Shown piece after piece: positions 14,868 through 47,470 of a stretch of 64,000 bases of DNA. The notes beneath the pieces are model-generated. The model saw only the letters and a program-made list of their open reading frames with translations. It was not told where the DNA came from and ran no database searches. Position numbers and translations under genes: made by a program. Position 1 is the stretch's first letter, and each line of letters starts with the position of its first letter. The DNA comes from an uncultured Verrucomicrobiae bacterium (GTDB lineage Bacteria > Verrucomicrobiota > Verrucomicrobiia > Chthoniobacterales > UBA10450), in the NCBI GenBank assembly GCA_963735805.1, contig CAVTMK010000002.1:15012-79011 (forward strand), written 5' to 3'.

Positions 14868-15404
14868 ATGAAATTTAAGGATGTTGCCCTCAAGCAGTCG
14901 CGGTTACGGAACCCAGTTGCTACGAAGACTCTCGGAGATGGACAGCAGCCGATCACTGTCAGAAAAATTCTCGTGCCGACCGACTTTTCTGCCGCATCGA
15001 GGAAATCTCTGTCCTACGCACTACGCTTTGCGAAAGGACTAAATTCTGAAATCACATTGCTGCATATTCTTGAGCCGGATACTCCGCTGACATTGTCTGG
15101 GCGGCCGGCTACGGCAGCATTCTCAAAAGAGGAATTGGTTGATGCGGAAGAAGCGTTGCGTGGTTTAACCGATTCGGCCAAAGCGGCTGGCGCCGCCGCT
15201 ACAAAGTCAATACTCCGCACCGGGGTTGCGACGCACGAGATCGTCGAGACAGCCAAGGAGCTCGATGTCGATCTGATTGTGATTGCCACGCATGGTTTCA
15301 GTGGTTGGAAACATTTCGCCATCGGCAGCACGGCCGAACGCGTCGCTCGAGCCGCGCCATGCCCAGTGCTCGTCGTTCGCGAAAAGGAACACGATTTTAT
15401 CTGA
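14868..15404 (+). CDS. Universal stress protein (single USP domain)
   Basis: [16 protein letters not shown] ... DLIVIATHGFSGWKHFAIGSTAERVARAAPCPVLVV. Confidence 0.87.
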   Translation: MKFKDVALKQSRLRNPVATKTLGDGQQPITVRKILVPTDFSAASRKSLSYALRFAKGLNSEITLLHILEPDTPLTLSGRPATAAFSKEELVDAEEALRGLTDSAKAAGAAATKSILRTGVATHEIVETAKELDVDLIVIATHGFSGWKHFAIGSTAERVARAAPCPVLVVREKEHDFI

Positions 15405-15614
15405 GTACCATGAAGCCGAAATCGTCACTCAAGAGGCGCACAACAGGCCACTCGAATCAAAAAGCGACGAACCGATCCCGAAAGCACCTCTCACGTCCCC
15501 AATGTCAACATCGGCATGGCCGGTTCGAATTTTCATGCGGGATCGACATGACACGGGCGTTGGTCGTCAAGGAATCCATAAAAGAGGAAGAAAGAGAACA
15601 CTGACGCAACTAAA

Positions 15615-16181
15615 ATGAAAACCCAAACCCAGACAAGAAAAGGAAACGAAACGAAAACAGAAGCCGAGGCACTGGCTACACGCGTGGCGCTACATCCATT
15701 CCTCGCTGGAATGGACCATGCGCAGCTAACGTTGCTAACCGATTGCGCTATAGAGGCGCACTTCAAACCTGGCGAGATCATTTTGCGCGAAGGCGAACTC
15801 GCCAATCGCTTTTATTTGATCGAGAGCGGGAAAGTGGTGCTGCAGTCCGGGAAAGATTCCGTGATCGTAGATACAATCGGCGCCGGTGATTTGCTGGGCT
15901 GGTCGTGGATGTTTCCTCCTCACGTGTGGCATTTCAGCGCCCGCGCTGTGGAGCCGACGGAAGCAATCTTTTTCTACGGCACAATACTGCGTGAGTATTG
16001 CGAGCGTGATCCCTCGTTAGGCTACGAGCTTTTCAAACGCATGGCGCCGATCATGCTGCGGCGGTTGCAAGCCGCACGCGATAAAATGTTGGCCATCCAT
16101 CATGGGCGGGCATCGCTTGAGCCGGTGGTCTTGGAGTCGCCATTCATGGACCAGGAGCAGGATGCCCTGGAGGATTCTTGA
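15615..16181 (+). CDS. Stand-alone cyclic-nucleotide-binding (CAP_ED) domain protein, no HTH
   Basis: HPFLAGMDHAQLTLLTDCAIEAHFKPGEIILREGELANRFYLIESGKVVL ... GAGDLLGWSWM. Confidence 0.75.
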   Translation: MKTQTQTRKGNETKTEAEALATRVALHPFLAGMDHAQLTLLTDCAIEAHFKPGEIILREGELANRFYLIESGKVVLQSGKDSVIVDTIGAGDLLGWSWMFPPHVWHFSARAVEPTEAIFFYGTILREYCERDPSLGYELFKRMAPIMLRRLQAARDKMLAIHHGRASLEPVVLESPFMDQEQDALEDS

Positions 16182-16438
16182 AAACGCGAACCGATGACAG
16201 GGAATACCGCGGCCTCGTTACCGATCTACTTGCCGGCGCTTCCATTCTCCGGAAAGAAGCGGCGAGATTGGCCAAAGACGCCGATTGCCTTCACGAAACC
16301 ATCGACCGGATGCACGCGGCAGCCGACCGCCTCCACCGAAGAATTGAGCAAACACATATCCGAATTCGCACCTACAGATCGCTCAATCGCATTCGCAAGT
16401 CGCCCGCCCGCCGCGGCTCCGGCTGCCAACAGTCTTGA
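16178..16438 (+). CDS. Small hypothetical coiled-coil protein (86 aa), TTGA-coupled to the cNMP-binding gene
   Basis: The TTG start overlaps the upstream stop. Helical heptad-like sequence: EAARLAKDADCLHETIDRMHAAADRLHRRIEQTHIRI. No family recognised. Confidence 0.3.
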   Translation: MKTRTDDREYRGLVTDLLAGASILRKEAARLAKDADCLHETIDRMHAAADRLHRRIEQTHIRIRTYRSLNRIRKSPARRGSGCQQS

Positions 16439-16480: not shown

Positions 16481-17401
16481 ATGGTCGAGGCCGGTGCAAG
16501 CCGAGCGGAATCGAATAAGCAACTTATCGACATGTTGCGCCGGTCTCGATTATTTCGGGATTACGAGAGTGTCTTTACTAAGGCGACTGGCCTGCCGCTG
16601 GTGCTTCGGCCGTTGGAATTTTGGCAACTCGCGCATCACGGCAAAAAACACGAAAATCCATTCTGCGCTCTCCTTGCCGAAAACCCCGCCACTCTCAGCG
16701 TTTGTCTGCAAGCGCACCAGGACATGATCGACCACACGGGATCAATTCCCCACAGTGTCACATGTCCATTTGGTCTGACCGAGACGGCCGTGCCAGTGAA
16801 GCTCGGAGCTAACGTCATTGGGTATTTGCGGATTGGTCAGGTCTTGCGGCATTTACCGGCAAAGTCAGACGCCAACAAGGTGAGTCGAGCGCTGGAGCGA
16901 TGCGGGGTTCCGTTCAAAAGCGAAGTTCGCAAAGCATGGGAGAGCAATCCTCTCATGCCACCCGACAAGTACAATGCCATTGTGCGGTTGCTCTCGTTTT
17001 TTGCCGAGCAACTCTCAGGTTTGGCGAACCAACTGGTCATCGAATCGCAAAACATTGAGCCACCGCTCGTGCAAAAGGCGCGTGATTACATCGACAAACA
17101 CAAGATGGAGCCGCTTTCTTTGGACGCCGTCGCAAAAGCAGCAGGTGCAAGCGTCTTCCATTTTTGCAAAGTTTTCCACAAAGCGACCGGCTTAAAGTTT
17201 ACAGATTACGTCGCGCGGGTCCGGCTGGAAGACGCGCGCACACAGCTGCTGAATCCGAATCGGCGCATCAGCGAAGTCGCGTACGACGTTGGCTTTCAAT
17301 CGCTGACGCAATTCAATCGCGTTTTCAAGCGCGTGTTCGGGCAATCGCCGAGCAAGTTTCGCGAGCGGCTCGTTGCGAACCAGTCACGGAAAATTGGATA
17401 A
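16481..17401 (+). CDS. AraC-family transcriptional regulator with N-terminal PocR-type sensor domain
   Basis: PocR-like N-terminal half (LFRDYESVFTKATGLPLVLRP, NPFCALLAENPATLSVCLQAH, TCPFGLTETAVPV). C-terminal AraC HTH (LSLDAVAKAAGASVFHFCKVFHKATG, EVAYDVGFQSLTQFNRVFKRVFGQSPSKFR). Confidence 0.8.
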   Translation: MVEAGASRAESNKQLIDMLRRSRLFRDYESVFTKATGLPLVLRPLEFWQLAHHGKKHENPFCALLAENPATLSVCLQAHQDMIDHTGSIPHSVTCPFGLTETAVPVKLGANVIGYLRIGQVLRHLPAKSDANKVSRALERCGVPFKSEVRKAWESNPLMPPDKYNAIVRLLSFFAEQLSGLANQLVIESQNIEPPLVQKARDYIDKHKMEPLSLDAVAKAAGASVFHFCKVFHKATGLKFTDYVARVRLEDARTQLLNPNRRISEVAYDVGFQSLTQFNRVFKRVFGQSPSKFRERLVANQSRKIG

Positions 17402-17471: not shown

Positions 17472-18446
17472 TCATTCAATCACCCCCAGGCCTTTTCTGG
17501 TGGATTTAGCCACGCGCATACAACGCAGCTCACACTCCCCCCGTCCTAGGGCTAGCCACCGACTTTCAAATTCCACCCACCGCTGCTCCTCGGGCAGCAT
17601 GGTGTGGCTCACGGGAAATTCCATGATTTCGCAGGGCGCCACGAAATGGTTTGCAATGGAATAGACGGTTTCAGCTGGAACCACCGGATCATTGAGTCCC
17701 AGACCAATGAGCGTTTCGCAGGAAACCATCCCAGCGAAGTTCACCGCGTCGAAATAGCGGAGCACTAACATGATGTCTTCGGTGGCCTCGGCACGCTCTT
17801 TAAGGTAATGCGCGATCTCCGCACCGGAACCAGATTTGACCAGGAAATATCGCCCCTCCGCCCATCCAAAGGTCGGCACGCCGAGCACAAGAAGATCCGA
17901 CGTGTCCCAAATCGCCTCCGCCATAAGGGCGAGTCCGCCCGCGAAGCTGAATCCATAAGTCAGATGTCGGGTGGTCTGTCCCGCGAAGAGATCGCGGGCC
18001 AGGTGCATCGTGCGGCCGTAGTCGCAAACCGCACCGCGCAGAATGGATGTCTCGGGCGACTCGATTCCAGTCAGCACATATCCCCAGGGCGAAGGGGCCG
18101 GGACGGCCGCCGCCGAGTGGCCAAAGCCACGAATGTCAATGCCAACCACATTGTATCCAGCCTGAGCCCATTTCCACTGGATCTCGCACTGCGAATGGTA
18201 GCCGTGGCTATGCACAACAAGCGGGCGTGGCGCGCCATCCAGCCAGCCGAGGCTGTAGCCAGTGATTTCGACCGCGCCTAACGAATGAAACGTGAACTGG
18301 CACAATTCAAGCGACGGGTGACTCTCGTAGGTCACGGGTATCCGGCGCACGCTTGGATCGATAGCATTCAGCTCCTCGCACGTCTTCGCCCAGAACGATT
18401 CGAAATCCGGGGGGCGGGTTAGAGGCGGGCGAATCTGGCGTTTCAT
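17472..18446 (-). CDS. Alpha/beta hydrolase, acetyl-xylan-esterase (AXE1/CE7)-like
   Basis: PPDFESFWAKT, LVVHSHGY, VGIDIRGFGHS and the nucleophile region YGFSFAGGLA. Confidence 0.68.
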   Translation of the reverse strand: MKRQIRPPLTRPPDFESFWAKTCEELNAIDPSVRRIPVTYESHPSLELCQFTFHSLGAVEITGYSLGWLDGAPRPLVVHSHGYHSQCEIQWKWAQAGYNVVGIDIRGFGHSAAAVPAPSPWGYVLTGIESPETSILRGAVCDYGRTMHLARDLFAGQTTRHLTYGFSFAGGLALMAEAIWDTSDLLVLGVPTFGWAEGRYFLVKSGSGAEIAHYLKERAEATEDIMLVLRYFDAVNFAGMVSCETLIGLGLNDPVVPAETVYSIANHFVAPCEIMEFPVSHTMLPEEQRWVEFESRWLALGRGECELRCMRVAKSTRKGLGVIE

Positions 18447-18510: not shown

Positions 18511-18990
18511 ATGCATGTCGAACAGGTCGTCCAGATCCCATTTTTTCAAGGGCTCCCGGCCGAAGCGCTCCGGCAAGTCGCTGCCGACGCGACCGTGCTC
18601 AGATTGGAACGCGGTCGGATCCTCATGTCGCAGCATGACGCTGCCGAGCATCTGTTCTTTCTGATTTCCGGCGTGGTGCAGTTTTACATTCATTTTCAAG
18701 GCGTGGACGATCTGCTCGTCGGGACAATCCGTGAGCGAGGCGCGTTGCTCGGCTGGTCGGTTTTCCGGAAGCCCTATCGCTACACGGTCACTATCCGTTG
18801 CGAAGAGGATTGCCAGGTCATGCGCCTCCCTCGCGAAACCATCATGGAACTGGTGCAAACGCAGCCGCGTCTTGGCTACCTCCTGTTAAAGCGGGTTGCC
18901 GCGACCCTCGCCAATAGACTTGAACAGACGCGCGATATTCTCGTTAGCTCCGCGACCTCAGGCGTGATGCCGACGGTGGGCGCCACATGA
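18511..18990 (+). CDS. Stand-alone cyclic-nucleotide-binding (CAP_ED) domain protein
   Basis: IPFFQGLPAEALRQVAADATVLRLERGRILMSQHDAAEHLFFLISGVV ... RGALLGWSV. Confidence 0.75.
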   Translation: MHVEQVVQIPFFQGLPAEALRQVAADATVLRLERGRILMSQHDAAEHLFFLISGVVQFYIHFQGVDDLLVGTIRERGALLGWSVFRKPYRYTVTIRCEEDCQVMRLPRETIMELVQTQPRLGYLLLKRVAATLANRLEQTRDILVSSATSGVMPTVGAT

Positions 18991-20492
18991 AATCAACCAT
19001 CGAACTGATTCGGGAATCACCATTCTTCGAGACCTTCCCGTCCGAAGACATCGACGCGCTTGCCGCGCACGCGGGAATGCAAAGCGTCGCGGCCGGCGAC
19101 GTAATCCTGCGGGAGAACGATCCGGCCGACGCGCTCTACATGATGGTGGCTGGCCAGGTGCGCCTCTCGTTCGAGATGGCCGAGGCACATACCAGATCGC
19201 GTACGTCAGAAGAAGATCGCATTCTTATCCGGACGCTGACGGAACCAGGGCGGATCATTGGGTGGTCGGCGATGGTCGAGCCATATCATTATCGCGCCAC
19301 GGCGACGGCCATCGAGAACACCCACCTGCTGGTATTCGAACGTTCATGGCTGGAGCGACGCGCGGAAGAGTTGCCTGAGTTTGGAGTGCAACTAATGACG
19401 CGGATCCTCTGGGTGCTCGGCAACCGGTTACGAGAGGCGCGCATCCGGCTCGTGGCCAGCCGGTATGAGGAGGAAGCGCTTGCCATTCGCGCGCTAATCG
19501 AGGAAAGCGGCTCCGAGCTCAGCGTCACATCGCCCCTGCACAAGCTGCCCATTTATCTCGAGCGTAGGCTTACTCTGTCCGATGCCTTTCAAACGCTCGA
19601 GCTGCTCCGCCACCATGGCGACCCACTTGAGGCCAGTCTCGCGCGGATGTGCCTTGAAATTCTGAAGAACGTCCGCAAAGAACTTGATGTCTATCGGCGA
19701 CTCCAGCAAATCTACGAAGCGGTGAGCGCGGCGCCGGAAGACACAACGCCAGAAGAGGTGAGGCGGCGCTGCTGCGTGGAATTCTGCCGGCTGTTCGAGC
19801 GCGTCGATTACATCATTGAGGGAGAAGAAAACCTACCCGCCGAGGCGGGGCACATCTTCGTCATGAACCACCTCGCTAATCATCCCGAGAACACGTTGCC
19901 TAACGATTTCCAGCTCACGCTCGACACACATTTTGTCTCCTGCATGGTGCTCAGCCCGAAGTATGGCGAGCCGCCGGTTCGCGTCATTCGCAAGTCGAAC
20001 CCTCACGAATACGGCCACCAGAAGTATTTCGATCGTCTGGGATACATCTATGTCTATGCAAAACATGTCGATGAAGACGAACGCAACCCGCAGTTGCTGG
20101 CGGAGCAGCGGCGGCGGGTTTTCCTAGAAACCGCCGCCCGCTGCCTTCGCGACGGTCGGAACCTTGTAATCTGTCCCGAAGGAGCATCCACCTCGACCGA
20201 ACGCTCCCCGCTGCCGTTTAAAGCGGGGGCTTTCCGCCTCGCGGCCTTCGTCGACTCCGAACCATTGATCGTACCGGTAGTGGTGGCGCATTTCGATCGC
20301 AAGATCACGCGGACCACTCTCATCGCGTGCGTGCACAAACCCTTCCTCCTGTCCGATCACGTTGCGAAGCCGGTGCAGGATGAAGCGCTCTTCGCGTTCA
20401 TCGCCGAGTTCGGGGAGAAAATGCGCGCCTGGGTGCACGACGCTGCCGCTCGCGCCGCGGTCGGGGCGACACCTCGCTCCAGCATCTCGTAG
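18987..20492 (+). CDS. Fusion protein: N-terminal cNMP-binding domain + C-terminal PlsC/LPLAT-type acyltransferase domain
   Basis: N-terminus: SPFFETFPSEDIDALAAHAGMQSVAAGDVILRENDPADALYMMVAGQV, GRIIGWSAMV. C-terminus: IFVMNHLANHPEN, RNLVICPEGASTSTERSPLPFKAGAFRLAA. ATGA overlap with the preceding CAP_ED gene. Confidence 0.7.
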   Translation: MKSTIELIRESPFFETFPSEDIDALAAHAGMQSVAAGDVILRENDPADALYMMVAGQVRLSFEMAEAHTRSRTSEEDRILIRTLTEPGRIIGWSAMVEPYHYRATATAIENTHLLVFERSWLERRAEELPEFGVQLMTRILWVLGNRLREARIRLVASRYEEEALAIRALIEESGSELSVTSPLHKLPIYLERRLTLSDAFQTLELLRHHGDPLEASLARMCLEILKNVRKELDVYRRLQQIYEAVSAAPEDTTPEEVRRRCCVEFCRLFERVDYIIEGEENLPAEAGHIFVMNHLANHPENTLPNDFQLTLDTHFVSCMVLSPKYGEPPVRVIRKSNPHEYGHQKYFDRLGYIYVYAKHVDEDERNPQLLAEQRRRVFLETAARCLRDGRNLVICPEGASTSTERSPLPFKAGAFRLAAFVDSEPLIVPVVVAHFDRKITRTTLIACVHKPFLLSDHVAKPVQDEALFAFIAEFGEKMRAWVHDAAARAAVGATPRSSIS

Positions 20493-20723: not shown

Positions 20724-21030
20724 AGGCCCCTTAGTAACCACCCAATTCGTTGATTTCCGACGACGTTCCTGATGGAGAGCAAGAGGGAACAGCCGGGCTT
20801 CTTTCGAAAAACTGTTTAAGGGGCCAGTCCGGCGAGGATGTGTGTCAAACGACCGACGAGGAAATTCGGATACTCCCATCCAAGCCACTAACCGCCAAAT
20901 CGTTTTAGCGGTAATGGACGCTGGGTCGCAGTTCGATGCGACTGCCAAGAATTGCGCTGTTCTTCGCAAGATTTGCCGAGCGGGATTGCCACGTCTGATC
21001 TCAAATTGAAATTAAGAAAGGCAAAATAAC

Positions 21031-21528: not shown

Positions 21529-21557
21529 AACCGCAAACGGAGACAACGGAGCAACCT

Positions 21558-22429: not shown

Positions 22430-22497
22430 TTCGCACAGGTGCCTCAGAAACAGTTCAAACGTAATCAACGAAAACAAGATGAGAATGGATAAACCTT

Positions 22498-22731
22498 ATG
22501 GCTAAATGCGAACATTGCGGAAACGAATATGACAAGGCATTCGAGGTTAGCTTTCAGGGAAAAATGCATGTCTTCGACAGCTTCGAGTGTGCGATTCAGG
22601 CGATGGCGCCGGAATGCAATCATTGCCATTGCAAAATTATTGGCCACGGCGTGGAAAACGGCGGCCAAATATTTTGTTGCGCCAATTGCGCGCGCGAGCG
22701 TGGTGAAAACCGGCTGCGCGATCGGATCTAA
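22498..22731 (+). CDS. Small Cys-rich zinc-ribbon / TRASH-YHS-like protein (77 aa)
   Basis: CEHCG...FDSFECAIQAM followed by CNHCHC...GGQIFCCANCARE, giving two CxxC...FxC-type half-sites. Confidence 0.55.
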   Translation: MAKCEHCGNEYDKAFEVSFQGKMHVFDSFECAIQAMAPECNHCHCKIIGHGVENGGQIFCCANCARERGENRLRDRI

Positions 22732-29821: not shown

Positions 29822-29831
29822 CAAAAATTGT

Positions 29832-32535: not shown

Positions 32536-32539
32536 GGCT

Positions 32540-39415: not shown

Positions 39416-41905
39416 ATGAAGAGCGGAGCCTCAGGGCGACAGTTGAAGGATTGGCCAAAATCCGACGCAGAAATGGAGCAGCTTGCCGGCAGCGTTACGC
39501 ACAGCACTCCAGGTGGTCGCTACATCAAATGGTTTCGCGAAATCGGGATCCAAGATGTGCCGCTGGTCGGCGGCAAGACGGCGTCGTTAGGCGAAATGTT
39601 TCGCGAACTCGCGCCGAAGGGAGTCAAAGTGCCGGATGGCTTTGCCATCACCGCTGTCGGTTACTGGCACATTCTCCACGAGACTCAACTCGATCAATTT
39701 ATCGAGACACAACTTCGCGGCTTGGAAATTAACGATGTAAAGCAGTTGCAAAAACGCGGCGTGGCCATTCGTGACGCGGTTCTTGCCGCGAAGCTGCCCA
39801 CCGATTTGCGTCGGGAGATTTTGGACGCCTACGATCAGTTATGCCGGGACTCCGACGGGCCCATTTCCGTTGCAGTCCGAAGCAGCGCGACAGCAGAAGA
39901 TTTACCCGAGGCCAGCTTCGCCGGCGCCCAGGAAACTTTCCTCAACGTGACCGGGCACGATCGCGTAATTGAGGCGTGCCGCCGCTGTTACGCCTCGCTT
40001 TTCACTGACCGTGCAATCTCATATCGGGCTGAGCGAGGGTTCGCCCATGACAAGGTCGGTTTGTCAATCGCCGTGCAGACGATGGTGCACTCGGACGTCG
40101 GTAGTTCGGGCGTTATTTTTACAATCGATACCGAGACTGGATTTCGCGACGCAATTTTGATCAACGCTTCATATGGACTTGGAGAAAATGTCGTAAAGGG
40201 CTTCGTGAATCCGGACGAGTTCTACGTGTTTAAAACAACGTTGAAGACCGACTTTCGTCCGATTCTGCAAAAGATTGCAGGCAGCAAAGAATTAAAACTT
40301 GTTTACGATACAGTTGCTGCCGGCGGCACGCGCAATATTCCAGTCCCGCCCCAGGATCGCCGCCGCTTCTCGATTTCGGACGACGAAATCCTTCAGCTCG
40401 CGCGGTGGGCCTGTATGATCGAAGAACACTACAGCGCAAAAAACGGTCGACCGACTCCAATGGACGTCGAGTTCGCCAAGGATGGCCGCACTGGTGAATT
40501 ATTCATTCTTCAGGCGCGGCCCGAAACGGTCGAATCCCGGAAGAACACGGCCGTAATGGAACATTACCGCCTCAAATCGCGTGGCTCAATTTTGATCCAA
40601 GGACGAAGTGTTGGAATGAAGATCGCGGCCGGGGTAGTGCGAGTGATAGCCGATCCAAAACATCTCGATGATTTTCAGGAAGGCGAGATTTTGGTCGCCG
40701 ACAAAACCGATCCGGATTGGGAACCGATCATGAAACAAGCGGCGGCGATTGTGACCAATCGTGGCGGCCGCACCTGTCATGCGGCAATCGTCAGTCGCGA
40801 ACTCGGAGTTCCGGCAATCGTTGGAACGGAACACGGCACAGAATTGTTGCGTAATGGACAAAGCGTCACCGTCTCATGCGCCGAGGGCGATATCGGTTTT
40901 GTTTACGAGGGCAAGTTGCCGTTCGAAGTGCAGCGCACGAATCTGAAAGACCTCTCGCGGCCGCGGACAAATGTGATGATGAACGTCGCGAACCCAGAGG
41001 AAGCATTCGCGCTGTCGTTTATTCCGAATGATGGCGTCGGCCTGGCGCGCGAGGAGTTCATCATCAGCAACTACATTAAAGTGCATCCGTTGGCGTTGCT
41101 CGATTACGCAAAAATCACCGATCCCGAAGTCAAAGCGAACATTGACCACTTGACGGTCGGTTACGACGACAAACCGCAGTTCTTCGTGGATAAACTTGCG
41201 CAAGGTGTGGCCATGATCGCTGCCGCATTCTATCCGAAGGATGTGATCGTGCGTTTGAGTGATTTCAAGACAAACGAATATGCAAATCTGATTGGTGGCC
41301 GCGCTTATGAGCCCATTGAAGAAAATCCGATGCTCGGTTTCCGCGGCGCGTCACGCTATTACAATGAAAGATATCAGGCAGGTTTCGCACTCGAATGCCG
41401 CGCCATGAAAAAAGTCCGCGATGAGATGGGCCTGACGAATTTGAAACTGATGATTCCTTTCTGCCGAACTGTCGATGAAGGCCGCAAGGTCATCGCAGAA
41501 ATGCAGAAGCACGGCCTCAAGCGCGGCGAGGCTGGCCTCGAGATTTATGTAATGTGTGAAATTCCCAGCAACGTCATTCTAGCCAACGAGTTCGCGGAGA
41601 TTTTTGATGGCTTCAGCATCGGTTCGAACGATCTGACTCAACTCATTCTTGGCGTGGATCGCGACAGCGAGATCGTGGCCGATATTTTCGACGAACGAAA
41701 CGCCGCTGTGAAAAAGATGATCTCTGACGTCATTGTAGTCGCACGCGCAAAACAACGAAAAATCGGCATCTGCGGCCAAGCGCCCAGCGATTATCCTGAG
41801 TTCGCTCAATTTTTAGTGGAGCAAAAAATCGACAGCATTTCGTTAAATCCCGACACTGTCCTCCAAACCACGCGAGCGATTCTCGAAACGGAAAAAGAGC
41901 GATAA
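39416..41905 (+). CDS. ppsA: Phosphoenolpyruvate synthase (pyruvate, water dikinase)
   Basis: VPLVGGKTASLGEM, SVAVRSSATAEDLPEASFAGAQETFLNV, the swivel-domain TNRGGRTCHAAIVSRELGVPAIVG and the PEP-utiliser C-terminus GFSIGSNDLTQL. Confidence 0.92.
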   Translation: MKSGASGRQLKDWPKSDAEMEQLAGSVTHSTPGGRYIKWFREIGIQDVPLVGGKTASLGEMFRELAPKGVKVPDGFAITAVGYWHILHETQLDQFIETQLRGLEINDVKQLQKRGVAIRDAVLAAKLPTDLRREILDAYDQLCRDSDGPISVAVRSSATAEDLPEASFAGAQETFLNVTGHDRVIEACRRCYASLFTDRAISYRAERGFAHDKVGLSIAVQTMVHSDVGSSGVIFTIDTETGFRDAILINASYGLGENVVKGFVNPDEFYVFKTTLKTDFRPILQKIAGSKELKLVYDTVAAGGTRNIPVPPQDRRRFSISDDEILQLARWACMIEEHYSAKNGRPTPMDVEFAKDGRTGELFILQARPETVESRKNTAVMEHYRLKSRGSILIQGRSVGMKIAAGVVRVIADPKHLDDFQEGEILVADKTDPDWEPIMKQAAAIVTNRGGRTCHAAIVSRELGVPAIVGTEHGTELLRNGQSVTVSCAEGDIGFVYEGKLPFEVQRTNLKDLSRPRTNVMMNVANPEEAFALSFIPNDGVGLAREEFIISNYIKVHPLALLDYAKITDPEVKANIDHLTVGYDDKPQFFVDKLAQGVAMIAAAFYPKDVIVRLSDFKTNEYANLIGGRAYEPIEENPMLGFRGASRYYNERYQAGFALECRAMKKVRDEMGLTNLKLMIPFCRTVDEGRKVIAEMQKHGLKRGEAGLEIYVMCEIPSNVILANEFAEIFDGFSIGSNDLTQLILGVDRDSEIVADIFDERNAAVKKMISDVIVVARAKQRKIGICGQAPSDYPEFAQFLVEQKIDSISLNPDTVLQTTRAILETEKER

Positions 41906-41909
41906 ATCT

Positions 41910-42836
41910 GTGAAAGAGAAAAACGAATCTCTGATCGTCTGTGGAACCGATTTTTCCGCGATGGCGACAGAAGCGGTTGACCTTGCAGCGGCGATGGCGA
42001 AACGCCTAGACACAAGACTTGTCCTTGTCCACGTCGACGAATCTTACGGAATGGCTTCAGTGGATTCCAAATTGTTCGACGCGGCTGTTGCGCACGGACG
42101 TCCTGAGCTCAATCAGATGGCGGATCGATTGAGGGAATTGGGAACTGACGTCGAAGTAAGGCTCCTTTGTGGGTCTGCGTTTGATAAATTGGTAACAGTC
42201 GCAAACAAATCCCGAGCACGGCTCATCGTCGTTGGCGCAGTAGGACATAGTCTCGTTAGGCGATTGCTTGTCGGAAGCGTAGCTGAACGCACGGCTGAAA
42301 CTTCGCCGATTCCCACCCTGGTGGTGCGTCCTGGTGGAAGGCTTCTCTCCTGGATTCAAGGTGAGCACGCTTTGAAAATTCTGGTCGGATACGATTTCTC
42401 TGCTGCCAGCGATGCCGCTTTAGATTGGCTGAATCAGCTCCGAAATATTGGCAAATGCCAAATCACCGTACTCTACAGTAATTGGCCTCCGGACGAAGCG
42501 CGTCGGCTGGGATATGAAGGACCGCTGCCCCTGGCGGATAATCCGAAGGCGATTCAAAAGAATCTTGAGCGTGATTTGAAGAAACGCGTTGCGACGTTTC
42601 TGCCGAAGCAACAAGTAAACGCCATCGTAGAGCCCGGCTGGGGAAATCCGGAAGGATACTTGTTCGAAATGGCTGGCGGCCAACATATGGATCTGATCGT
42701 CGTCGGAACTCATCAGCGACGTGGCTTGGGCGGCATTCTTCTGGGGTCGGTTTCGCGTGCTGTCTTACATCACGCAAAAATGTCAGTGGCGGTCGTCCCT
42801 CCGGTTGAAAACGCCATGCGAAAATCAAAGGAATGA
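41910..42836 (+). CDS. Universal stress protein, tandem USP domains (GTG start 4 nt after the ppsA stop)
   Basis: LIVCGTDFSAMATEA...LIVVGAVGHSLVRRLLVGSVAERTAETSPIPTLVV; ILVGYDFSAASD...LIVVGTHQRRGLGGILLGSVSRAVLHHAKMSVAVV. Confidence 0.85.
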   Translation: MKEKNESLIVCGTDFSAMATEAVDLAAAMAKRLDTRLVLVHVDESYGMASVDSKLFDAAVAHGRPELNQMADRLRELGTDVEVRLLCGSAFDKLVTVANKSRARLIVVGAVGHSLVRRLLVGSVAERTAETSPIPTLVVRPGGRLLSWIQGEHALKILVGYDFSAASDAALDWLNQLRNIGKCQITVLYSNWPPDEARRLGYEGPLPLADNPKAIQKNLERDLKKRVATFLPKQQVNAIVEPGWGNPEGYLFEMAGGQHMDLIVVGTHQRRGLGGILLGSVSRAVLHHAKMSVAVVPPVENAMRKSKE

Positions 42837-43378
42837 GAACCAGACCATCAGGGCAGCGTCGTCGCGCCCGAATGGACCTACAACGTATATTGGTGCCAGT
42901 CGATTTCTCGGAATCGTCCGCGGGCGCATTACGCCATGCCGTGGAACTCGCTGTGGAATCGGGCGGCTCGCTGATAATAGTTCACGTCGTTCCGTCTGAC
43001 TACGGATGGTTGGGGATCGGGCGTGACGAATCACGCGATTTAGATCGCTCATTGCAGCGGCAGGCGGCAAATCGATTGGAGGGCTTGGCAGATGAACATG
43101 TAGACCACAAGGTGGTTGCGGAACTGGAGGTTCGTATCGGCCAGCCGGCAACACAGATCGCTGCTGCAGCGACTGACTCAAAATGCAATCTGATTGTCAT
43201 GGCGACGCATGGACTTACCGGGCTCGACCGGTATCTCATCGGCAGCGTTGCCGATCGGGTCGCGCGACTAGCTCCTTGTCCGGTGCTTCTAATCCCGCCT
43301 GTGAGGCGCCCGATTGTTGGAGCACTTCCATCCCAAACTGTCCTTCGGTTTAAACACAAACCCAAGCGGGGTCGCTGA
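42833..43378 (+). CDS. Universal stress protein (single domain) with short basic tail
   Basis: [16 protein letters not shown]...LIVMATHGLTGLDRYLIGSVADRVARLAPCPVLLI. Tail: RFKHKPKRGR. ATGA overlap with the upstream USP. Confidence 0.87.
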   Translation: MRTRPSGQRRRARMDLQRILVPVDFSESSAGALRHAVELAVESGGSLIIVHVVPSDYGWLGIGRDESRDLDRSLQRQAANRLEGLADEHVDHKVVAELEVRIGQPATQIAAAATDSKCNLIVMATHGLTGLDRYLIGSVADRVARLAPCPVLLIPPVRRPIVGALPSQTVLRFKHKPKRGR

Positions 43379-43400: not shown

Positions 43401-46124
43401 ATGCAACCCGTTGATGCTCCTTGCTGGCATCATACGAGCGTGGATGAGGTCGTCCGATGTTTTAGAACCAATCTTGCGAATGGCCTTTCGCTCAGTGAAG
43501 TCAGATCACGAGCAAAAGAATATGGACCAAACAAGCTGGCCGAACCGCGACCTCGGCGTTGGTTGTCAAAGCTGCTTAGCCAGTTCAATCAACTGGTTCT
43601 TTGGATTCTAATCGCCGCGACACTTCTGTCGGCAGTCCTGGGCGACTGGCTGGAAGCCGGGGCGATTCTGGCAATCGTTCTTTTAAACGCGCTGCTCGGA
43701 TTTTTTCAGGAACAAAAAGCCGAGAAGGCCCTTTCTTCGCTCAAAGAGCTTTCTTCTCCTGTTGCCAAGGTAATCCGGGACGGCTCACTGCGCATTCTTC
43801 CAGCGGAAACGCTCGTTCCGGGAGACGTCGTTGAAGTTGAGGCAGGCGACCACGTCCCGGCAGACGCACGGCTGGTTACAACATTCGCATTGAAGATGCA
43901 GGAAGCCGCTCTCACTGGTGAATCGACGCCCATTGAAAAGGACAGCGTTGCAGTGTTACCCCACGATGTTGGTATTGCTGAGCGCGCCAATGTGGTGTTC
44001 ACAGGAACCACGGTCGTCGCCGGTAAAGGTCGTGGCGTAGTCACAGCGATCGGAATGAATACCGAATTGGGTCGCATCGCCGGGTTCCTGATCACGGAAA
44101 AACGCGAACCGACACCGCTCCAGAAACGATTGGCGGAGCTGGGTCGCGTGCTTATTATCGCCTGTCTCAGTCTGGTGGCTGTCATTTTCGTTTTAGAGCT
44201 GCTCCGCGGCGAAAGTCTGGCGCAAACCTTTCTCATGGCGGTCAGCCTGGCGGTGGCGGCGGTGCCCGAAGGATTGCCGGCGGTGGTGGCCATTGCCCTT
44301 GCCCTGGGTTTGCAGCGCATGGTTAAGCGAAACGCTCTCATCCGCCGATTGGCCAGTGTCGAAACGCTCGGCTCGGTGACCGTGATCTGCTCTGACAAGA
44401 CAGGGACGCTAACACGCAACGAAATGATGGTTACGGAAATCGTAACCGGCACTGGACGGTACAAAGTTACTGGAACCGGTTATGGGCCGGATGGAGAATT
44501 CGTTGCGCTTGCGGTCGGACCAGACGGCGATAGCGGACCTGCAAACCCGCGAAATGACCCTGACCTCGCAATGGCGTTGACCATCGGCATCTGGTGCAAC
44601 AATGCGAGACTGGATCCGCCAAGCGATCATGATGAGCACTGGAGAATCTTCGGCGACCCAACTGAGGGCGCTCTCATCGTCGCGGCGAGAAAGGCCGGGG
44701 TCGAGCGTGGCCCCGATTGCTCCATCATTCACGAGATCCCGTTCGACTCAACTCGCAAATTGATGTCGATCGTGGTGAAAAACGCGCAGCGGCGAGCTGT
44801 CATTTATACCAAGGGTGCGCCCGAATTACTTCTGGAACGCTGCGCATTTGAACGCCGGGATGGAAAGATCGTGTCGTTGTCACCGGCGCGCCGCGAGAAA
44901 CTACTACGGCAAAGCAGCGACATGGCCAACCGTGCGCTGCGATTACTTGCGCTTGCCTATCGAGATCTCGACAACGATTCACCGGAATATCGAGAACAGG
45001 ATTTGGTTTTTGCGGGGCTGGTTGGAATGATTGATCCGCCGCGCGAAGAAGCGCGTACAGCGGTCGCGAAATGCCAGTCGGCAGGCGTACGTCCGGTAAT
45101 GATGACCGGCGATCATCCAGCAACTGCCCTTGCTGTTGCGCAAGCGTTGAACGTTGCAAGCGACGCTGAAGCTCGGATCACCGGTTTGGAACTTGATGCA
45201 CTCTCCGAGCAGGAGTTGCTAGCGAGGGTGGAACGTCTTGCCGTATACGCGCGTGTTTCGCCAGAGCACAAGCTAAGAGTCATACAAGCGCTCAAAGCGA
45301 ACGGCCAGGTTGTCGCGATGACGGGCGACGGCGTGAATGACGCGCCTGCAGTCAAGATGGCCGACATCGGAATCGCGATGGGGATTACTGGTACGGACGT
45401 GACGAAGGAGGTGTCGGACATGGTTCTGACAGACGACAACTTTGCTTCCATCGTCAACGCAGTTGAAGAAGGGCGAGGCATCTACAACAACATCCAGGAG
45501 TTCGTCCATTATCTCCTTTCCTGTAACATTAGCGAAGTCGCGCTGGTCCTCTTTGCGGCTCTTGTCGGATGGCCCGTTCCGCTGCTTCCAATCCAGATAC
45601 TTTGGATCAATCTTATCACCGATGGATTACCAGCGCTGGCGCTTGCCATGGAAAAACCGGAGCCGAACATAATGAAGCGCCGCCCGCGGCCACCAAGGGA
45701 GCCGTTCTTTACCCGCCGGCGTGGATCGCAAATTCTTATTCACGGCTTTGTTCTGTCGGCGGTAAACATTGGAGGGTTCGCCTATTCCTATATTAGAGCG
45801 GGGAGTTCGTATGCGCAGGCGACGGCCTTCTACATCACAACCTTCGCCCAGCTTTTCTTCTCCTTCGCTTGCCGCAGTCAGCGTTACACGCTTCCGCAAC
45901 TTGGCGTCTTTACGAATCCGTACCTTCTCGCAGCGATTGTCCTTTCTGGGATATTGCAGATTTCCTTGCTCTGGTTTCCGTTAACGCGAAACGTATTTTT
46001 CCAAACCGCGCCACAATTTGGCTCTGATTGGTTGATCATTCTTTTGCTGGCGCTCGCTCCGGTGTCATTGGTCGAGATCACGAAAATTGTCCGTCGTCGA
46101 TACGGGTGCAAAAGCGTGATCTGA
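43401..46124 (+). CDS. Type IIA Ca2+-type P-type ATPase (SERCA/CtpF-like)
   Basis: GLSLSEVRSRAKEYGPNKL, TGESTPIEK, PEGLPAVVAIALALG, CSDKTGTLTRNEM, MTGDHPATA, MTGDGVNDAPAVKMADIGIAMG and 10-TM topology. The ATG at 43401 was chosen; the track ORF from 43314 overlaps the USP gene. Confidence 0.9.
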   Translation: MQPVDAPCWHHTSVDEVVRCFRTNLANGLSLSEVRSRAKEYGPNKLAEPRPRRWLSKLLSQFNQLVLWILIAATLLSAVLGDWLEAGAILAIVLLNALLGFFQEQKAEKALSSLKELSSPVAKVIRDGSLRILPAETLVPGDVVEVEAGDHVPADARLVTTFALKMQEAALTGESTPIEKDSVAVLPHDVGIAERANVVFTGTTVVAGKGRGVVTAIGMNTELGRIAGFLITEKREPTPLQKRLAELGRVLIIACLSLVAVIFVLELLRGESLAQTFLMAVSLAVAAVPEGLPAVVAIALALGLQRMVKRNALIRRLASVETLGSVTVICSDKTGTLTRNEMMVTEIVTGTGRYKVTGTGYGPDGEFVALAVGPDGDSGPANPRNDPDLAMALTIGIWCNNARLDPPSDHDEHWRIFGDPTEGALIVAARKAGVERGPDCSIIHEIPFDSTRKLMSIVVKNAQRRAVIYTKGAPELLLERCAFERRDGKIVSLSPARREKLLRQSSDMANRALRLLALAYRDLDNDSPEYREQDLVFAGLVGMIDPPREEARTAVAKCQSAGVRPVMMTGDHPATALAVAQALNVASDAEARITGLELDALSEQELLARVERLAVYARVSPEHKLRVIQALKANGQVVAMTGDGVNDAPAVKMADIGIAMGITGTDVTKEVSDMVLTDDNFASIVNAVEEGRGIYNNIQEFVHYLLSCNISEVALVLFAALVGWPVPLLPIQILWINLITDGLPALALAMEKPEPNIMKRRPRPPREPFFTRRRGSQILIHGFVLSAVNIGGFAYSYIRAGSSYAQATAFYITTFAQLFFSFACRSQRYTLPQLGVFTNPYLLAAIVLSGILQISLLWFPLTRNVFFQTAPQFGSDWLIILLLALAPVSLVEITKIVRRRYGCKSVI

Positions 46125-46127
46125 ATC

Positions 46128-46487
46128 ATGAAAACAGCCGAAGCGCGAGCTGAGCCTTCTGCGGAAACAATGGGGTTGGAGCGTCGTCCGGTTCTCAAGA
46201 CAATGGTTGCGCCGAGGAAAATCAGTTGCGTTAGACGCGTGGTCAAAGAGCACAGGACGGATGAAACGGAGTTTTCGATTCTGATCAGCGATCACTGGCA
46301 GGGCAAGGGATTGGGCTCGGCGCGTCTGAGGTTGCTCGTGCAACTCCGACGCAGAGACCGCCTAGGGCGAATCATTGGCCATATTTCAGCTGAGAACATC
46401 ACAATGAAAACCGTGAGCCAAGAAGCCGGGTTTGATCTGCATTTCGATCGAAGCGATAGCGAATGGGGGGCTGAGATGAATTTGTGA
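46128..46487 (+). CDS. Short GNAT-like protein (119 aa), resembling only the C-terminal half of the GNAT domain of Pat-type protein acetyltransferases
   Basis: [58 protein letters not shown] contains the Q/RxxGxG/A acetyl-CoA motif. It starts 3 nt after the ATPase stop, and its stop overlaps the ldhA GTG (GTGA). Confidence 0.5.
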
Positions 46488-47470
46488 AGGTCGCCGTCTT
46501 TGGCACCAGAAGTTACGATCGTGAATTTCTTGGCGCGGCAAATCATTCGCGTCACGAATTACATTTCTTTGAGCCGCACTTGAACGAGCAAACGGCCGGC
46601 CTCGCAGCCGGATTCAATGCCGTTTGCGTTTTTGTCAATGATCAGGTTGGCGCGGCAACGATTACAGCGTTGAACTCGTTAGGCGTACGTCTGATTGCGC
46701 TGCGTTGCGCCGGATACAACAATGTCGATCTAAGTGCCGCTAAGAAACATGGCATCACCGTCGTGCGCGTCCCCGGATATTCGCCTTACGCAGTGGCGGA
46801 GCACGCGATCGGTTTGGTGCTGGCGCTCGATCGCAAACTGCATCGCGCATCCAACCGGGTGCGTGAAGGCAATTTCGCGCTCGACGGTCTGCTCGGGTTC
46901 GATCTCCACGGCAAAACTGTTGGAATCATCGGCACCGGAAAAATTGGGACTGTCGTGGCGCAAATTCTCACTGGCTTTGGTTGCCCGACATTGGTATTCG
47001 ATCCGATTCCGAACGAGAAATGTCGATCCTTGGGAGCCCGTTACGTCGAGTTGGAAGAGCTCCTCGCGCAGTCCGACATCGTCACTTTACACTGCCCGCT
47101 TACACCGGAGAACAAGCACATGATCAACGCCGCTGCGATCGCAAAGATGAAAACCGGAGTGATGCTGATTAATACCAGCCGGGGTGCGCTGCTAGACACG
47201 GTGGCCGTAATCGAGGCCCTAAAGAGCGGCAAGATCGGATATCTCGGTCTTGACGTTTACGAAGAAGAGGAACAGATCTTTTTCGAAGATCGCTCTGGTC
47301 TAATCATTCCCGATGACGTGTTCGCGCGGCTATTAACTTTCCCAAATGTCATCATTACGGGTCACCAGGCCTTCTTTACGCGGGAAGCTTTAGAAAACAT
47401 CGCGGCTGTTACCGTACACAACCTCACGAGCTTCGAAAATGGACTGAAGCTTGAAAATCAGCTTATTTGA
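46484..47470 (+). CDS. ldhA: D-lactate dehydrogenase / D-isomer-specific 2-hydroxyacid dehydrogenase
   Basis: [52 protein letters not shown] and TGHQAFFT. Confidence 0.85.

Follow-up and report, generated by a model that had tools for sequence, protein, structure and literature searches.

A 36-bp operator shared across a USP-rich island of a soil verrucomicrobium points to a single persistence regulon, probably with an AraC-type switch

The window, meaning the whole 64,000-nucleotide stretch of DNA that was analysed, comes from a Ca. Udaeobacter-like soil bacterium (Chthoniobacterales, Verrucomicrobiota). Within it lies a 35-kb island in which eight USP genes share one 36-bp control sequence with metabolic and ion-pump genes, and which is therefore probably a single persistence regulon. 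The gene set resembles those of the DosR regulon and the lxa locus; the switch probably differs from theirs and is likely to be of the AraC type. What the sequence analysis shows directly is the gene content and the operator, along with how the operator is conserved and spaced.

The USP family (PF00582) scored above the Pfam gathering score in all eight genes, and the count of eight genes and 13 domains given by an earlier sequence-only reading agrees with Pfam:

14868-15404, +, USP, one domain; first gene of a conserved USP-cNMP-PocR/AraC triad
22792-23754, +, tandem USP, two domains
24525-25628, +, tandem USP, two domains
27047-28054, +, tandem USP, two domains
28841-29821, +, tandem USP, two domains
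36071-36760, +, USP, one domain
41910-42836, +, tandem USP, two domains
42833-43378, +, USP, one domain

All this lies within 32.6 kb, a density of about 24 per 100 kb, compared with roughly 0.1-0.25 per 100 kb in E. coli or M. tuberculosis. A ninth, tandem USP (56567-57445, - strand) lies outside the interval and lacks the nucleotide-binding loop. Of the 13 island domains, 11 have the ILVP.DFS strand and 12 a relaxed loop, x3-G-x9-G(S/T); the statement that all USPs carry these motifs was slightly overstated, because USP 41910 diverges. Two domains have the strict ATP-binding loop of MJ0577/UspFG type, G-2x-G-9x-G(S/T), and in 10 further domains the first loop glycine is replaced by A, S or P. 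The island paralogues are 25-54% identical, and are therefore old duplicates rather than the result of recent tandem amplification.

Pfam also found every neighbouring family that had been named. The earlier gene list stands with two corrections: PPK2 (12481-13344) falls outside its interval, and the intact P-type ATPases number three (Mg-type 32540, Ca/P2-type 43401, heavy-metal P1B 48241), not one. A fourth, H+-type P-type ATPase is split across 9944-12464. The other genes are as follows:

15615-16181, +, cNMP-binding-domain protein, 188 aa, without HTH (Pfam)
16481-17401, +, PocR sensor plus AraC-type two-HTH regulator (Pfam)
17472-18446, -, AXE1-family esterase (Pfam)
18511-18990, +, cNMP-binding protein (Pfam)
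18987-20492, +, cNMP-binding plus PlsC-type acyltransferase (Pfam)
21031-21528, +, CBS pair, first gene of the CBS operon 21031-22731 (Pfam)
21558-22019, +, DUF2267, CBS operon (Pfam)
22016-22429, +, Host_attach/baeRF-like, CBS operon (Pfam)
22498-22731, +, Cys-rich 77-aa ORF, CBS operon
23921-24322, +, 133-aa ORF of no named family; 71% identical ORF in syntenic position in L002
25625-26452, +, ABC ATPase, with tandem USP 24525 (Pfam)
28051-28713, +, phosphoribosyltransferase-domain (PRTase) protein, with tandem USP 27047 (Pfam, NCBIfam)
29832-31166, +, Erythro_esterase-family protein (Pfam, 456 bits)
31132-31974 and 31984-32535, +, two ORFs of no named family
32540-34993, +, Mg-type P-ATPase (Pfam, NCBIfam)
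35095-35277, +, small membrane ORF
35274-36074, +, polysaccharide deacetylase (Pfam)
36757-37143, +, REC-only protein (Pfam)
37162-38226, +, Zn-ADH (Pfam)
38262-39197, +, PfkB hexose kinase (Pfam, NCBIfam)
39416-41905, +, PpsA (Pfam, NCBIfam)
43401-46124, +, P2 Ca-type ATPase (Pfam, NCBIfam)
46128-46487, +, GNAT fragment
46484-47470, +, D-2-hydroxyacid dehydrogenase (Pfam, NCBIfam)
47604-48107, +, protein with hydrophobic, signal-peptide-like N-terminus
48241-50223, +, P1B heavy-metal ATPase, possibly co-transcribed with ORF 47604-48107 (Pfam, NCBIfam)

The genes from 28841 to 36760 (+) form a tightly packed run that is collinear in two loci from relatives, L001 and L002, and the gene order of the CBS operon is identical in L004 and L006. 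An MFS transporter and PPK2 lie near the island. The esterase-like protein 29832 belongs to the PF05139 family only. Its identification as a macrolide esterase Ere was rejected on its scores against EreB (66 bits, cut-off 750), EreA (33 against 750) and EreD (21 against 800), and its best solved relatives are Bacillus 'succinoglycan biosynthesis' proteins.

One 36-bp operator recurs ahead of nine transcription units in the interval 14.8-50.2 kb, each time on the coding strand. This consists of two 15-bp direct repeats, CAAGAAwyGcgCAGy, placed 21 bp apart: unit A (positions 1-15) reads CAAGAAayGcgCAGt and unit B (positions 22-36) CAAgattyGCgrAGc. Of 20 sites, 19-20 have C1/A2/A3/G9 and C22/A23/A24/G30, and the two-repeat pattern is kept in all 28 aligned sites. 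The window sites are listed with the distance from the end of the operator 24-mer to the ATG:

Site 1, 14801-14836, +, CAAGAAACGCACAGCGTTTAGCAA plus 12 nt; 43 nt to the ATG of USP 14868
Site 2, 20946-20981, +, top score; 61 nt to the CBS gene ATG, with SD-like GAAAGG
Site 3, 23840-23875, +, 57 nt to the ATG of ORF 23921-24322
Site 4, 24458-24493, +, 43 nt to the ATG (tandem USP 24525 and ABC ATPase)
Site 5, 26981-27016, +, 42 nt to the ATG (tandem USP 27047 and PRTase)
Site 6, 28719-28754, +, one mismatch; 98 nt to the ATG (run from 28841)
Site 7, 36690-36725, +, inside the 3' end of USP 36071; 43 nt to the REC gene ATG
Site 8, 39301-39336, +, 91 nt to the PpsA ATG
Site 9, 47537-47572, +, 43 nt to the ATG (ORF 47604-48107)

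A pattern scan of the window gave 10 matches, compared with 2.5 +/- 1.6 in shuffles; each of the nine best lies on the + strand and upstream of a gene, from 14.8 to 47.6 kb. A PWM derived solely from 11 sites in relatives recovered exactly these nine window sites, at 22-41 bits; the next-best match in the window reached 16 bits and the shuffle maximum was 14.6. No operator was found in the block at 17.4-20.5 kb, which holds the AXE1 esterase and two cNMP proteins. Two proteins that had been counted as part of the toolkit, the M50-CBS protease (4930) and the ferredoxin (58756), are present in the window, but neither is preceded by an operator. Membership of the unit is unsupported for these two, as for PPK2 and the ninth USP, because they are without it.

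Chthoniobacterales relatives (L002-L004, L006, L007, L082-L084) carry the operator ahead of orthologous USP, CBS, REC and HSP20 genes, with spacer bases that vary. HSP20 is operator-controlled by this measure in L082, L004 and L176, and the arrangement at the REC gene (site 7) recurs in L083, L122, L174 and L178. In other lineages, 74 loci (~1.1 Mb) gave two weak matches only. The possibility that USP genes accumulated locally by chance or pure duplication, with no common regulation, draws on the mutual paralogy of the tandem USPs 22792, 24525, 27047 and 28841. It is very improbable, and a chance pile-up of genes is rejected for the region from ~14.8 to 50.2 kb: the nine sites lie far above shuffle, the relatives' PWM finds them independently, and synteny and operator are both kept across related genomes, so that the island is conserved rather than a random accumulation. 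The evidence supports a real, non-mobile island kept within the lineage. The GC content matches that of the flanks. As the sequence-only reading had said of the flanks, no mobility genes were found by Pfam in the window, all plausible ORFs of its 64 kb included. That reading's placing of the island next to oriC was not supported, as dnaA adjacency is not conserved in relatives and no DnaA-box cluster was found.

The distance from operator to start codon falls into classes. The ATG follows the 24-mer by 42-43 nt in 18 of 35 sites and by 56-61 nt in another 10, the latter with SD-like GAAAGG. Sites of the 42-43-nt class have a -10-like cAnnnT at -12 to -7, with positions -11 and -7 being A/T in 17 of 18 (consensus cA...T), and no canonical sigma-70 promoters were found upstream. 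With the transcription start predicted at or just upstream of the ATG, the operator would cover approximately -67 to -32, a geometry that implies leaderless or very short-leader mRNAs. The lack of an SD says little on this point, because SD-like sequences are rare across the window (9 of 51 genes).

XylS/AraC promoters, whose regulators have an N-terminal sensor and a C-terminal double HTH, have operators of two direct repeats, each ~15-17 bp, that follow one another at a 21-bp period and adjoin the -35 region. The island shares with AraC I1-I2 at araBAD and XylS at Pm the two direct repeats, the 21-bp period and the linkage of regulator gene and targets; on the predicted transcription start, its proximal repeat would likewise reach -35. 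It differs in its sensor, a PocR (PAS-like) domain, in the size of the regulon (nine promoters in one island), and in that about half of its promoters would give leaderless mRNAs.

The PocR-AraC protein (16481-17401) combines PF10114 with PF12833 (86 bits) and PF00165 (64 bits). Its residues 195-297 align full-length over the DNA-binding domain with SoxS, MarA and Rob, and also with RamA, in the PDB. It is at least 79% identical in over 120 protein clusters, and among close relatives its sensor has three invariant Cys. Several regulators had been proposed from sequence; this protein can bind DNA by its domains, whereas the cNMP proteins are without an HTH and the REC protein without an output domain. 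As the sole DNA-binding protein in the island it is the best candidate regulator, and is most likely the activator of the operator. The PocR of Salmonella and Lactobacillus reuteri, the pdu/cob regulator, has the same sensor and HTH architecture and activates a large gene cluster, as we propose for the island protein; its targets would instead be stress genes, none of them of the pdu, cob or microcompartment type. The triad is conserved in relatives, with an operator ahead of it in the window (14801), L082 (8724) and L084 (8655). A paralogous PocR-AraC gene in L082 is also preceded by the operator. In the window neither cNMP 15615 nor PocR-AraC 16481 has an operator of its own, and gaps of 210 and 300 nt make co-transcription with USP 14868 uncertain.

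It is possible, though we think it rather unlikely, that the operator is read by another factor, a symmetric-dimer regulator or alternative sigma factor encoded elsewhere, with PocR-AraC a mere member of the regulon. In some sites the left part can also be read as an imperfect palindrome of 18 bp (AAGAAcTGC/GCAgTTCTT), near-perfect in the CBS-class sites (AAGAACTGCGCAGTTCTT), in keeping with a symmetric dimer, for example a protein of Crp/Fnr or TetR type. In L084 the triad adjoins NnrS, a multicopper oxidase and a full Crp/Fnr regulator (cNMP plus HTH_Crp_2), and our view covers 64 kb of genome. However, USP-class sites do not keep the palindrome register, while every site keeps the CAA-N5-G direct repeat at 21 bp, with the 3' repeat invariant at G30 and G35. 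The conserved elements lie ~30 nt from the -10-like box, too far for a -35 element, and the operator is linked to the PocR-AraC operon in every relative examined.

The suggestion that control differs from that of DosR gained support from this specific operator, which matches neither the DosR box nor the FNR box. The DosR palindrome (core GGGAC-N4-GTCCC) gave 20 matches at up to 2 mismatches (22.5 expected), none at island promoters, and FNR-box matches were scattered, mostly intragenic and not enriched at those promoters. DosR and DosS are absent, as the sequence-only reading had said, with no GerE/LuxR, GAF or HisKA_3 domain in plausible ORFs of the 64-kb window (Pfam), so that the island differs from DosR/OsdR systems in having no NarL/LuxR-type regulator, GAF-haem kinase or DosR palindrome.

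The parallel with DosR stands at family level only. The M. tuberculosis regulon, which responds to hypoxia, NO or CO and serves survival without replication, likewise has multiple USPs, and its PfkB, CBS pair, P2-type ATPase and PRTase/erythromycin-esterase-like families are shared; it also has the alpha-crystallin HspX. The window holds no HSP20, nitrate reductase or other DosR hallmark families, nor were NarK2, Tgs1 or NrdZ found in it. Pfam found no Acg-type nitroreductases in window ORFs; according to a passage in PMC11876180 (citing Gerasimova 2011), the minimal DosR regulon includes these together with USPs. Descent or horizontal transfer of an actinobacterial DosR regulon, later rewired in Verrucomicrobia, would account for the shared families, and some bacteria have the PRTase and erythromycin-esterase-like proteins fused, Rv2030c being a fusion of this kind. 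We consider such an origin highly unlikely. The nearest homologues of the esterase-like protein outside the order belong to Acidobacteriota, Gemmatimonadota and Cyanobacteria (60-67% identity), with one actinobacterial match among its best 80. Rv2626c ranks 5th and Rv2623 6th-7th among PDB matches, and the M. tuberculosis similarity is therefore generic. The age of the USP paralogues, the uniform GC, the lack of mobility genes and the occurrence of the same family assemblage in many phyla also argue against transfer.

A DosR-like toolkit under new control outside the actinobacteria was put forward as novel, but the lxa locus of Burkholderia cenocepacia J2315 is already known as such an island under non-DosR control. 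It holds six USPs, PfkB, polysaccharide deacetylase, Zn-ADH, a cation ATPase and CRP-type regulators (PMC3721108, Sass et al., 2013), and its authors themselves remarked on the overlap with the DosR regulon (PMC3721108). Both are contiguous chromosomal clusters without DosR in non-actinobacteria, each defined by a shared upstream motif. Comparison of annotations, rather than sequences, matches the island's Pfam content to lxa Table 4 (PMC3721108) in USP, PfkB, polysaccharide deacetylase, Zn-ADH, cation ATPase, ABC ATPase and response regulator. The lxa locus also has cNMP/CRP-type proteins, whereas the island cNMP proteins are without an HTH, and the lxa motif is Anr/FNR-like (TGA-N6-TCA / TTGAT-N4-ATCAA) rather than a 21-bp-period direct repeat. 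Alpha-crystallin, BON proteins, PHA synthesis, class II RNR and acetate kinase occur in lxa and are absent from the window. Induction and the anoxic-survival phenotype of lxa are experimental, whereas the island is known here from sequence alone. The OsdR island of S. coelicolor (SCO0167-SCO0219) likewise groups USPs, Zn-ADH, pyruvate phosphate dikinase and a Crp-like regulator around osdR.

Hypoxia as the island's signal is suggested by these analogies. A co-regulated unit serving general stress (desiccation/rewetting, osmotic or ion stress, starvation or stationary phase) instead of hypoxia or dormancy is a tentative alternative to which we give limited weight. USPs, HSP20 and BON-domain proteins are generic stress markers, and they recur in equivalent loci of relatives and other phyla. 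Four P-type ATPases of differing ion classes, with the MFS transporter and PPK2 nearby, and a soil habitat with drying cycles also favour it. The gene content, USP here and also HSP20 and BON in relatives, suits general stress, desiccation or starvation as well as hypoxia, and three families usual in low-oxygen regulons, Acg-type nitroreductases, nitrate reductase and class II ribonucleotide reductase, were not found. On the other hand, the fermentative or redox-balancing set of D-2-hydroxyacid dehydrogenase, Zn-ADH, PpsA and PfkB matches the lxa and OsdR/DosR sets, whose induction by low oxygen is experimental, and NnrS, Crp/Fnr and cytochrome c genes adjoin in relatives.

From these data we infer the identity of the regulator, the transcription starts and the signal. 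In the proposed mechanism, PocR-AraC would activate nine transcription units of ~33 genes, each from an activator-dependent promoter with the operator as its upstream element. Members would be the eight USPs, the CBS-DUF2267-baeRF-like operon, the PRTase and erythromycin-esterase-like pair, the Mg, Ca and heavy-metal P-type ATPases, polysaccharide deacetylase, the REC-ZnADH-PfkB operon, PpsA and D-2-hydroxyacid dehydrogenase. As the operator precedes the conserved USP-cNMP-PocR/AraC operon, positive autoregulation would follow. The DosR/OsdR and lxa gene sets suggest, by analogy, that oxygen or energy limitation, or growth arrest, is the most likely trigger. With moderate confidence, we read the region from ~14.8 to 50.2 kb as one lineage-specific stress or persistence regulon, activated by PocR-AraC in response to such conditions.

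The island, at about 14.8-50.2 kb of the window, is very likely a single co-regulated unit, in which one direct-repeat element, here called the operator, covers nine transcription units with about 33 genes. The core of this element is a 24-mer, CAAGAAWYG-N8-TT-NN-CAA, that recurs in the intergenic regions of the island. A search of the window with this pattern gave 10 matches, compared with 2.5 +/- 1.6 in shuffles, and the nine best all lie on the + strand and upstream of genes.

Operator sites of the window, found by pattern search
14801, + strand, operator site ahead of the USP at 14868-15404
20946, + strand, operator site
23840, + strand, operator site
24458, + strand, operator site
26981, + strand, operator site
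28719, + strand, operator site
36690, + strand, operator site
39301, + strand, operator site
47537, + strand, operator site

As the pattern had been drawn from six of these nine sites, the test was repeated with a matrix from relatives only, built on 11 sites of related genomes with the window sites left out. This independent matrix finds exactly the same nine sites (22-41 bits); the next match in the window reaches 16 bits and the highest in 20 shuffles 14.6 bits. The gap between sites and background is more than 5 bits with the relatives-only matrix, and more than 15 bits with a matrix that takes in every known site. When the sites are aligned with their flanks, the element grows to 36 bp: a pair of 15-bp direct repeats, CAAGAAayGcgCAGt and CAAgattyGCgrAGc, whose starts are 21 bp apart. 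Near-invariant in both are C-A-A, G at position 9 of the unit and AG at 13-14. At the CBS-class sites the left part doubles as an 18-bp palindrome (AAGAACTGC/GCAGTTCTT), a register that is lost in USP-class sites. A reading of the AAACG/CGTTT versus AAATG/CATTT pairing in some sites as an RNA hairpin was set aside, the pairing not being kept in most sites and its register being unlike that of the CBS-class palindrome.

A weak divergent operator-like site at 26930-26965 (-) scores about 14 bits, no more than noise; it precedes a 64-aa ORF (26705-26899, -) by exactly 42 nt. It is similar to the sites ahead of HSP20 in two relatives, L082 and L004, and is possibly a degenerate tenth operator. The 24-mer pattern also matches an unrelated, highly repeated sequence (CAAGAAAAGCAAAGAATTTTGCAAGAGCAGATGAGA), found in part on human-gut metagenome contigs. 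Among the matches listed, this family comprises L086, L097, L099, L104, L105, L108 and at least some 20 further metagenome loci, and each copy precedes, by 70 nt, an ORF beginning MEES, MEKS or METS; it resembles a promoter or leader conserved in some gene family of gut bacteria or phages.

The operator stands ahead of orthologous genes in eight Chthoniobacterales relatives (L002, L003, L004, L006, L007, L082, L083 and L084), with bases differing at the non-conserved positions. In 74 loci from other lineages, about 1.1 Mb in all, it is essentially missing. Collinearity between the window and L002 extends over 16.5 kb, part of the island recurs unchanged in GCA_049698875.1, and GC content is even between island and flanks. 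Metagenome-wide operator matches are contaminated by the gut sequence family and were used solely, after filtering, for a census of first genes. This census covers at least 62 genes downstream of operator-like sites in the window, the relatives and the filtered metagenome matches among those listed. The first gene encodes, among these 62, a USP in at least 22, a REC-only protein in at least 6, a CBS protein in at least 6, HSP20 in at least 3, DUF2267 in at least 2 and PpsA in at least 1; the window ORFs 23921 and 47604 account for one each, and 20 are unassigned. One of the unassigned genes looks like a pyruvate kinase, and some of the unassigned metagenome matches are probably noise. No operator lies ahead of PPK2, the M50-CBS protease, the ferredoxin or a ninth, tandem USP at 56567-57445 (-), which adjoins a TauE/SafE exporter. 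As this ninth USP also lacks the G-x9-G(S/T) loop, it is probably not a member of the regulon.

The distance from operator to gene is constrained. Among 35 operator sites from the window and eight related loci, the 24-mer ends exactly 42-43 nt from the ATG in 18, and 56-61 nt from it in 10, where a GAAAGG-like sequence precedes the ATG. Between operator and ATG, conservation in the 42-43-nt class is limited to cA at -12/-11 and T at -7. In a sigma-70 -10 element the two positions that matter most are A-11 and T-7, and their placement here fits a predicted transcription start at the A of the ATG; the 56-61-nt class would fit the same start point with a leader of 13-18 nt. No canonical -35/-10 pair was found upstream of island genes. 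In the simplest reading, with starts placed in this way, the island promoters would be activator-dependent and the operator would cover about -67 to -32. Neither canonical sigma-70 promoters nor intrinsic terminators exceed shuffles, so operon boundaries could not be set by these means. The missing SD was rejected as an argument for leaderless mRNAs: SD-like tetramers are rare upstream of genes throughout the window (9/51), and their absence at operator genes therefore adds nothing. Translation initiation in this organism seems to be largely SD-independent.

The sole DNA-binding protein of the island is a PocR-AraC regulator (16481-17401), and we infer, at even balance, that it is the regulator of the operator. 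An alignment with SoxS, MarA, Rob and RamA spans all of its C-terminal 100 residues, and more than 120 protein clusters have the protein at 79% identity or higher. The operator shares its two direct repeats with a 21-bp period with AraC I1-I2 and XylS at Pm, where the repeats reach the -35 region, as they would here with the predicted starts, and the two conserved sub-sites per repeat would fit a double-HTH monomer. PocR-AraC is the third gene of a triad, after a USP and a cNMP-binding protein (in the window at 14868-15404 and 15615-16181), in all three relatives inspected. The operator precedes this triad in the window, L082 and L084, and likewise a second PocR-AraC paralogue in L082, which suggests autoregulation. 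Three Cys and five His of the PocR domain are invariant among the compared sequences, but these resemble one another too closely for this to count as evidence. Downstream of the operator of the second paralogue (L082:14971-15199), at the canonical 42 nt, lies a 22-aa ORF (MKTKLHRRKLRARDQELDIPKV), possibly a leader peptide or else a decayed USP gene. At L084:1479-8514 the triad adjoins DUF2249, NnrS, a TPP enzyme, a Crp/Fnr regulator and a multicopper oxidase; this NO- and oxygen-related context is missing from the window.

The gene content described in the sequence-only reading was confirmed, and its interpretation was supported in part. Each of the eight USP genes (at 14868, 22792, 24525, 27047, 28841, 36071, 41910 and 42833) scores above the PF00582 gathering score, and a Pfam scan of the ORFs gives 1, 2, 2, 2, 2, 1, 2 and 1 domains in coordinate order, 13 in total. 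The USP motifs, said to be carried by all eight genes, are in most domains: ILVP.DFS in 11 of 13, the relaxed loop x3-G-x9-G(S/T) in 12, and the strict G-2x-G-9x-G(S/T) in two, the divergent USP being that at 41910. The paralogues share only 25-54% pairwise identity, which points to an old family expansion and not to fresh tandem duplication. Every neighbour family named was found by Pfam, as were the three cNMP-binding proteins, the PocR-AraC regulator and the orphan REC protein. PPK2 exists, at 12481-13344, beyond the interval in which it had been placed, and the supposedly single Ca2+ P-type ATPase is one of several P-type ATPases.

Other features of the window (Pfam unless stated)
16481-17401, PocR + AraC regulator
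21558-22429, + strand, block of DUF2267 and a Host_attach/baeRF-like protein
28051-28713, PRTase
29832-31166, Erythro_esterase family protein (456 bits)
32540, P-type ATPase, Mg-type (NCBIfam TIGR01524, above cut-off)
43401, P-type ATPase, P2 Ca-type (NCBIfam)
48241, P-type ATPase, P1B heavy-metal type (NCBIfam)
Three cNMP-binding proteins, HTH in none of the three
PfkB, hexose kinase of the PfkB-II kind (Pfam; NCBIfam)
CBS pair; AXE1 esterase; ABC ATPase; polysaccharide deacetylase; REC-only protein; Zn-ADH; PpsA; D-2-hydroxyacid dehydrogenase

A further P-type ATPase, of the plasma-membrane H+-type (P3A-like; 9944-12464, +), has a single-base frameshift near 11073-11083 (...GACCCAAGTGGTACTTAAGACC...) that splits it into ORFs 9944-11083 and 11073-12464, and is either a pseudogene or an assembly error. 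With those at 32540, 43401 and 48241, four P-type ATPases of four subfamilies lie inside 40 kb. The DUF2267 and Host_attach/baeRF (release-factor-like) block belongs to the CBS operon; baeRF_family3 proteins recur among the seven USP-rich loci of other phyla that were scanned, which hints at a tie to translation or the state of the ribosome. A Cys/His-rich 77-aa ORF (22498-22731, +; MAKCEHCGNEYDKAF...) sits between the baeRF-like gene and the USP at 22792, with 75% identity in L004 and a single, weak Pfam match, to prokaryotic metallothionein (E 0.007). A 119-aa ORF (46128-46487, +), identical in the comparison locus L001, has a Pfam match under the cut-off that takes in just the C-terminal half of a GNAT acetyltransferase; the gene may be truncated. 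ORFs 23921, 31132, 31984, 47604, 22498, 35095 and 26705-26899 gave nothing significant in Pfam (E<=1), and five of these seven also had no match in NCBIfam. In Rfam and tRNA scans of the window the sole match was tRNA-Thr at 55376-55451.

Similar gene sets are known from other bacteria. The lxa cluster of B. cenocepacia, 50 genes induced by low oxygen, contains six USPs, a PfkB-type kinase, a polysaccharide deacetylase, a Zn-ADH and a cation ATPase, as well as ABC proteins, CRP-type regulators and a response regulator; its genes have an Anr/FNR-like motif in common, and its authors themselves noted the overlap with the DosR regulon (PMC3721108). In the OsdR island of S. coelicolor (SCO0167-0219), USPs, a Zn-ADH, PPDK, a nitroreductase and a Crp-like regulator are clustered (PMC5069765), and the minimal DosR regulon is reported to include USPs and the Acg nitroreductase (PMC11876180). 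The island is the same kind of object as the lxa, OsdR and DosR sets, and shows the defining marks of neither regulatory system. In contrast to the DosR system, it has no DosR, DosS or DosR box (GGGAC-N4-GTCCC, no enrichment), and GerE/LuxR and GAF kinase domains, like integrases and transposases, were found in none of the plausible ORFs of the window, as had been proposed. Unlike lxa, it has no FNR box at its promoters and its cNMP proteins lack an HTH; the FNR/Anr box (TTGAT-N4-ATCAA) shows a modest global excess (47 vs 30), not at island promoters. No nitroreductase was found in the window. In a comparison with the PDB entries of Rv2623 and Rv2626c, the only M. tuberculosis sequences covered, Rv2626c ranks 5th (E 4e-13) and Rv2623 6th-7th (E 1e-10) among PDB matches of island proteins, a generic likeness. 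Oxygen or energy limitation is a plausible trigger, at slightly less than even confidence, with general stress as the main rival.

The esterase-like protein (29832-31166) has 92% identity to one in a Ca. Udaeobacter sp. MAG; for other Chthoniobacterales/Spartobacteria MAGs the figure is 75-78%. Among its best 80 matches, most of the 74 loci that fall outside the Udaeobacter-like group have it at 58-67% identity; Acidobacteriota, Gemmatimonadota, Cyanobacteria, Chloroflexi and Planctomycetes are represented in these 74. The PRTase gene is present in 53 of these best 80 loci, immediately upstream on the same strand in 40, and the two are fused in L077:1638-3686 (683 aa, a Kofleriaceae MAG) and L063:1-1752 (a Rhodomicrobium MAG). 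Rv2030c, too, is a PRTase-esterase-like fusion. In other lineages, USP ORFs occur near the pair at 2.7 per 100 kb, and seven USP-rich loci also have BON, HSP20, baeRF, CBS and ADH genes, with GerE and GAF not among their 25 most frequent families. As the same assemblage is found in many phyla, the DosR-like content appears to be a widespread neighbourhood and no single actinobacterial transplant. The esterase-like protein scores far under every NCBIfam Ere cut-off, so its label as an antibiotic-resistance gene is probably wrong; the "erythromycin esterase" of this pair is a likely false positive of antibiotic-resistance screens, and the function of the conserved pair is worth solving.

The position of the island beside dnaA/dnaN is not kept in relatives, where the flanks are RuvC/Nramp (L082) or NnrS/Crp/Cu-oxidase (L084). 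Nor is its proposed adjacency to oriC demonstrated: the gap upstream of dnaA contains only one E. coli-type DnaA box, with one mismatch, and there is no GC skew switch. Gene orientation flips at about 9 kb, and the switch point is the 1.2-kb gap (8745-9943) from dnaA to the first + strand gene. If this gap is oriC, the DnaA boxes of the lineage would differ from the E. coli consensus.

The assemblage of USP, PfkB, ADH, P-type ATPase, CBS and PRTase-esterase genes recurs in Verrucomicrobiota, Acidobacteriota and Gemmatimonadota under different regulators, which points to a conserved physiological module and not an actinobacterial speciality. More tentatively than for the trigger, PocR-AraC, possibly with its conserved cNMP-domain partner, could act in Ca. 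Udaeobacter as master activator of about 35 genes, a persistence regulon that would be largely leaderless, with the PRTase and esterase-like pair and its USP, CBS, HSP20, BON and baeRF neighbours forming a pan-phylum persistence module. We found no mention of the island in the published literature searched. The analysis yields a directly testable gene set, a 36-bp operator with a position weight matrix, and a single candidate regulator. Uncultured and ecologically dominant, Ca. Udaeobacter and its relatives rank with the most abundant bacteria of soil, and if the joint reading is true they would have a third, independently evolved control of the same USP-centred gene set, after DosR and Anr/FNR.
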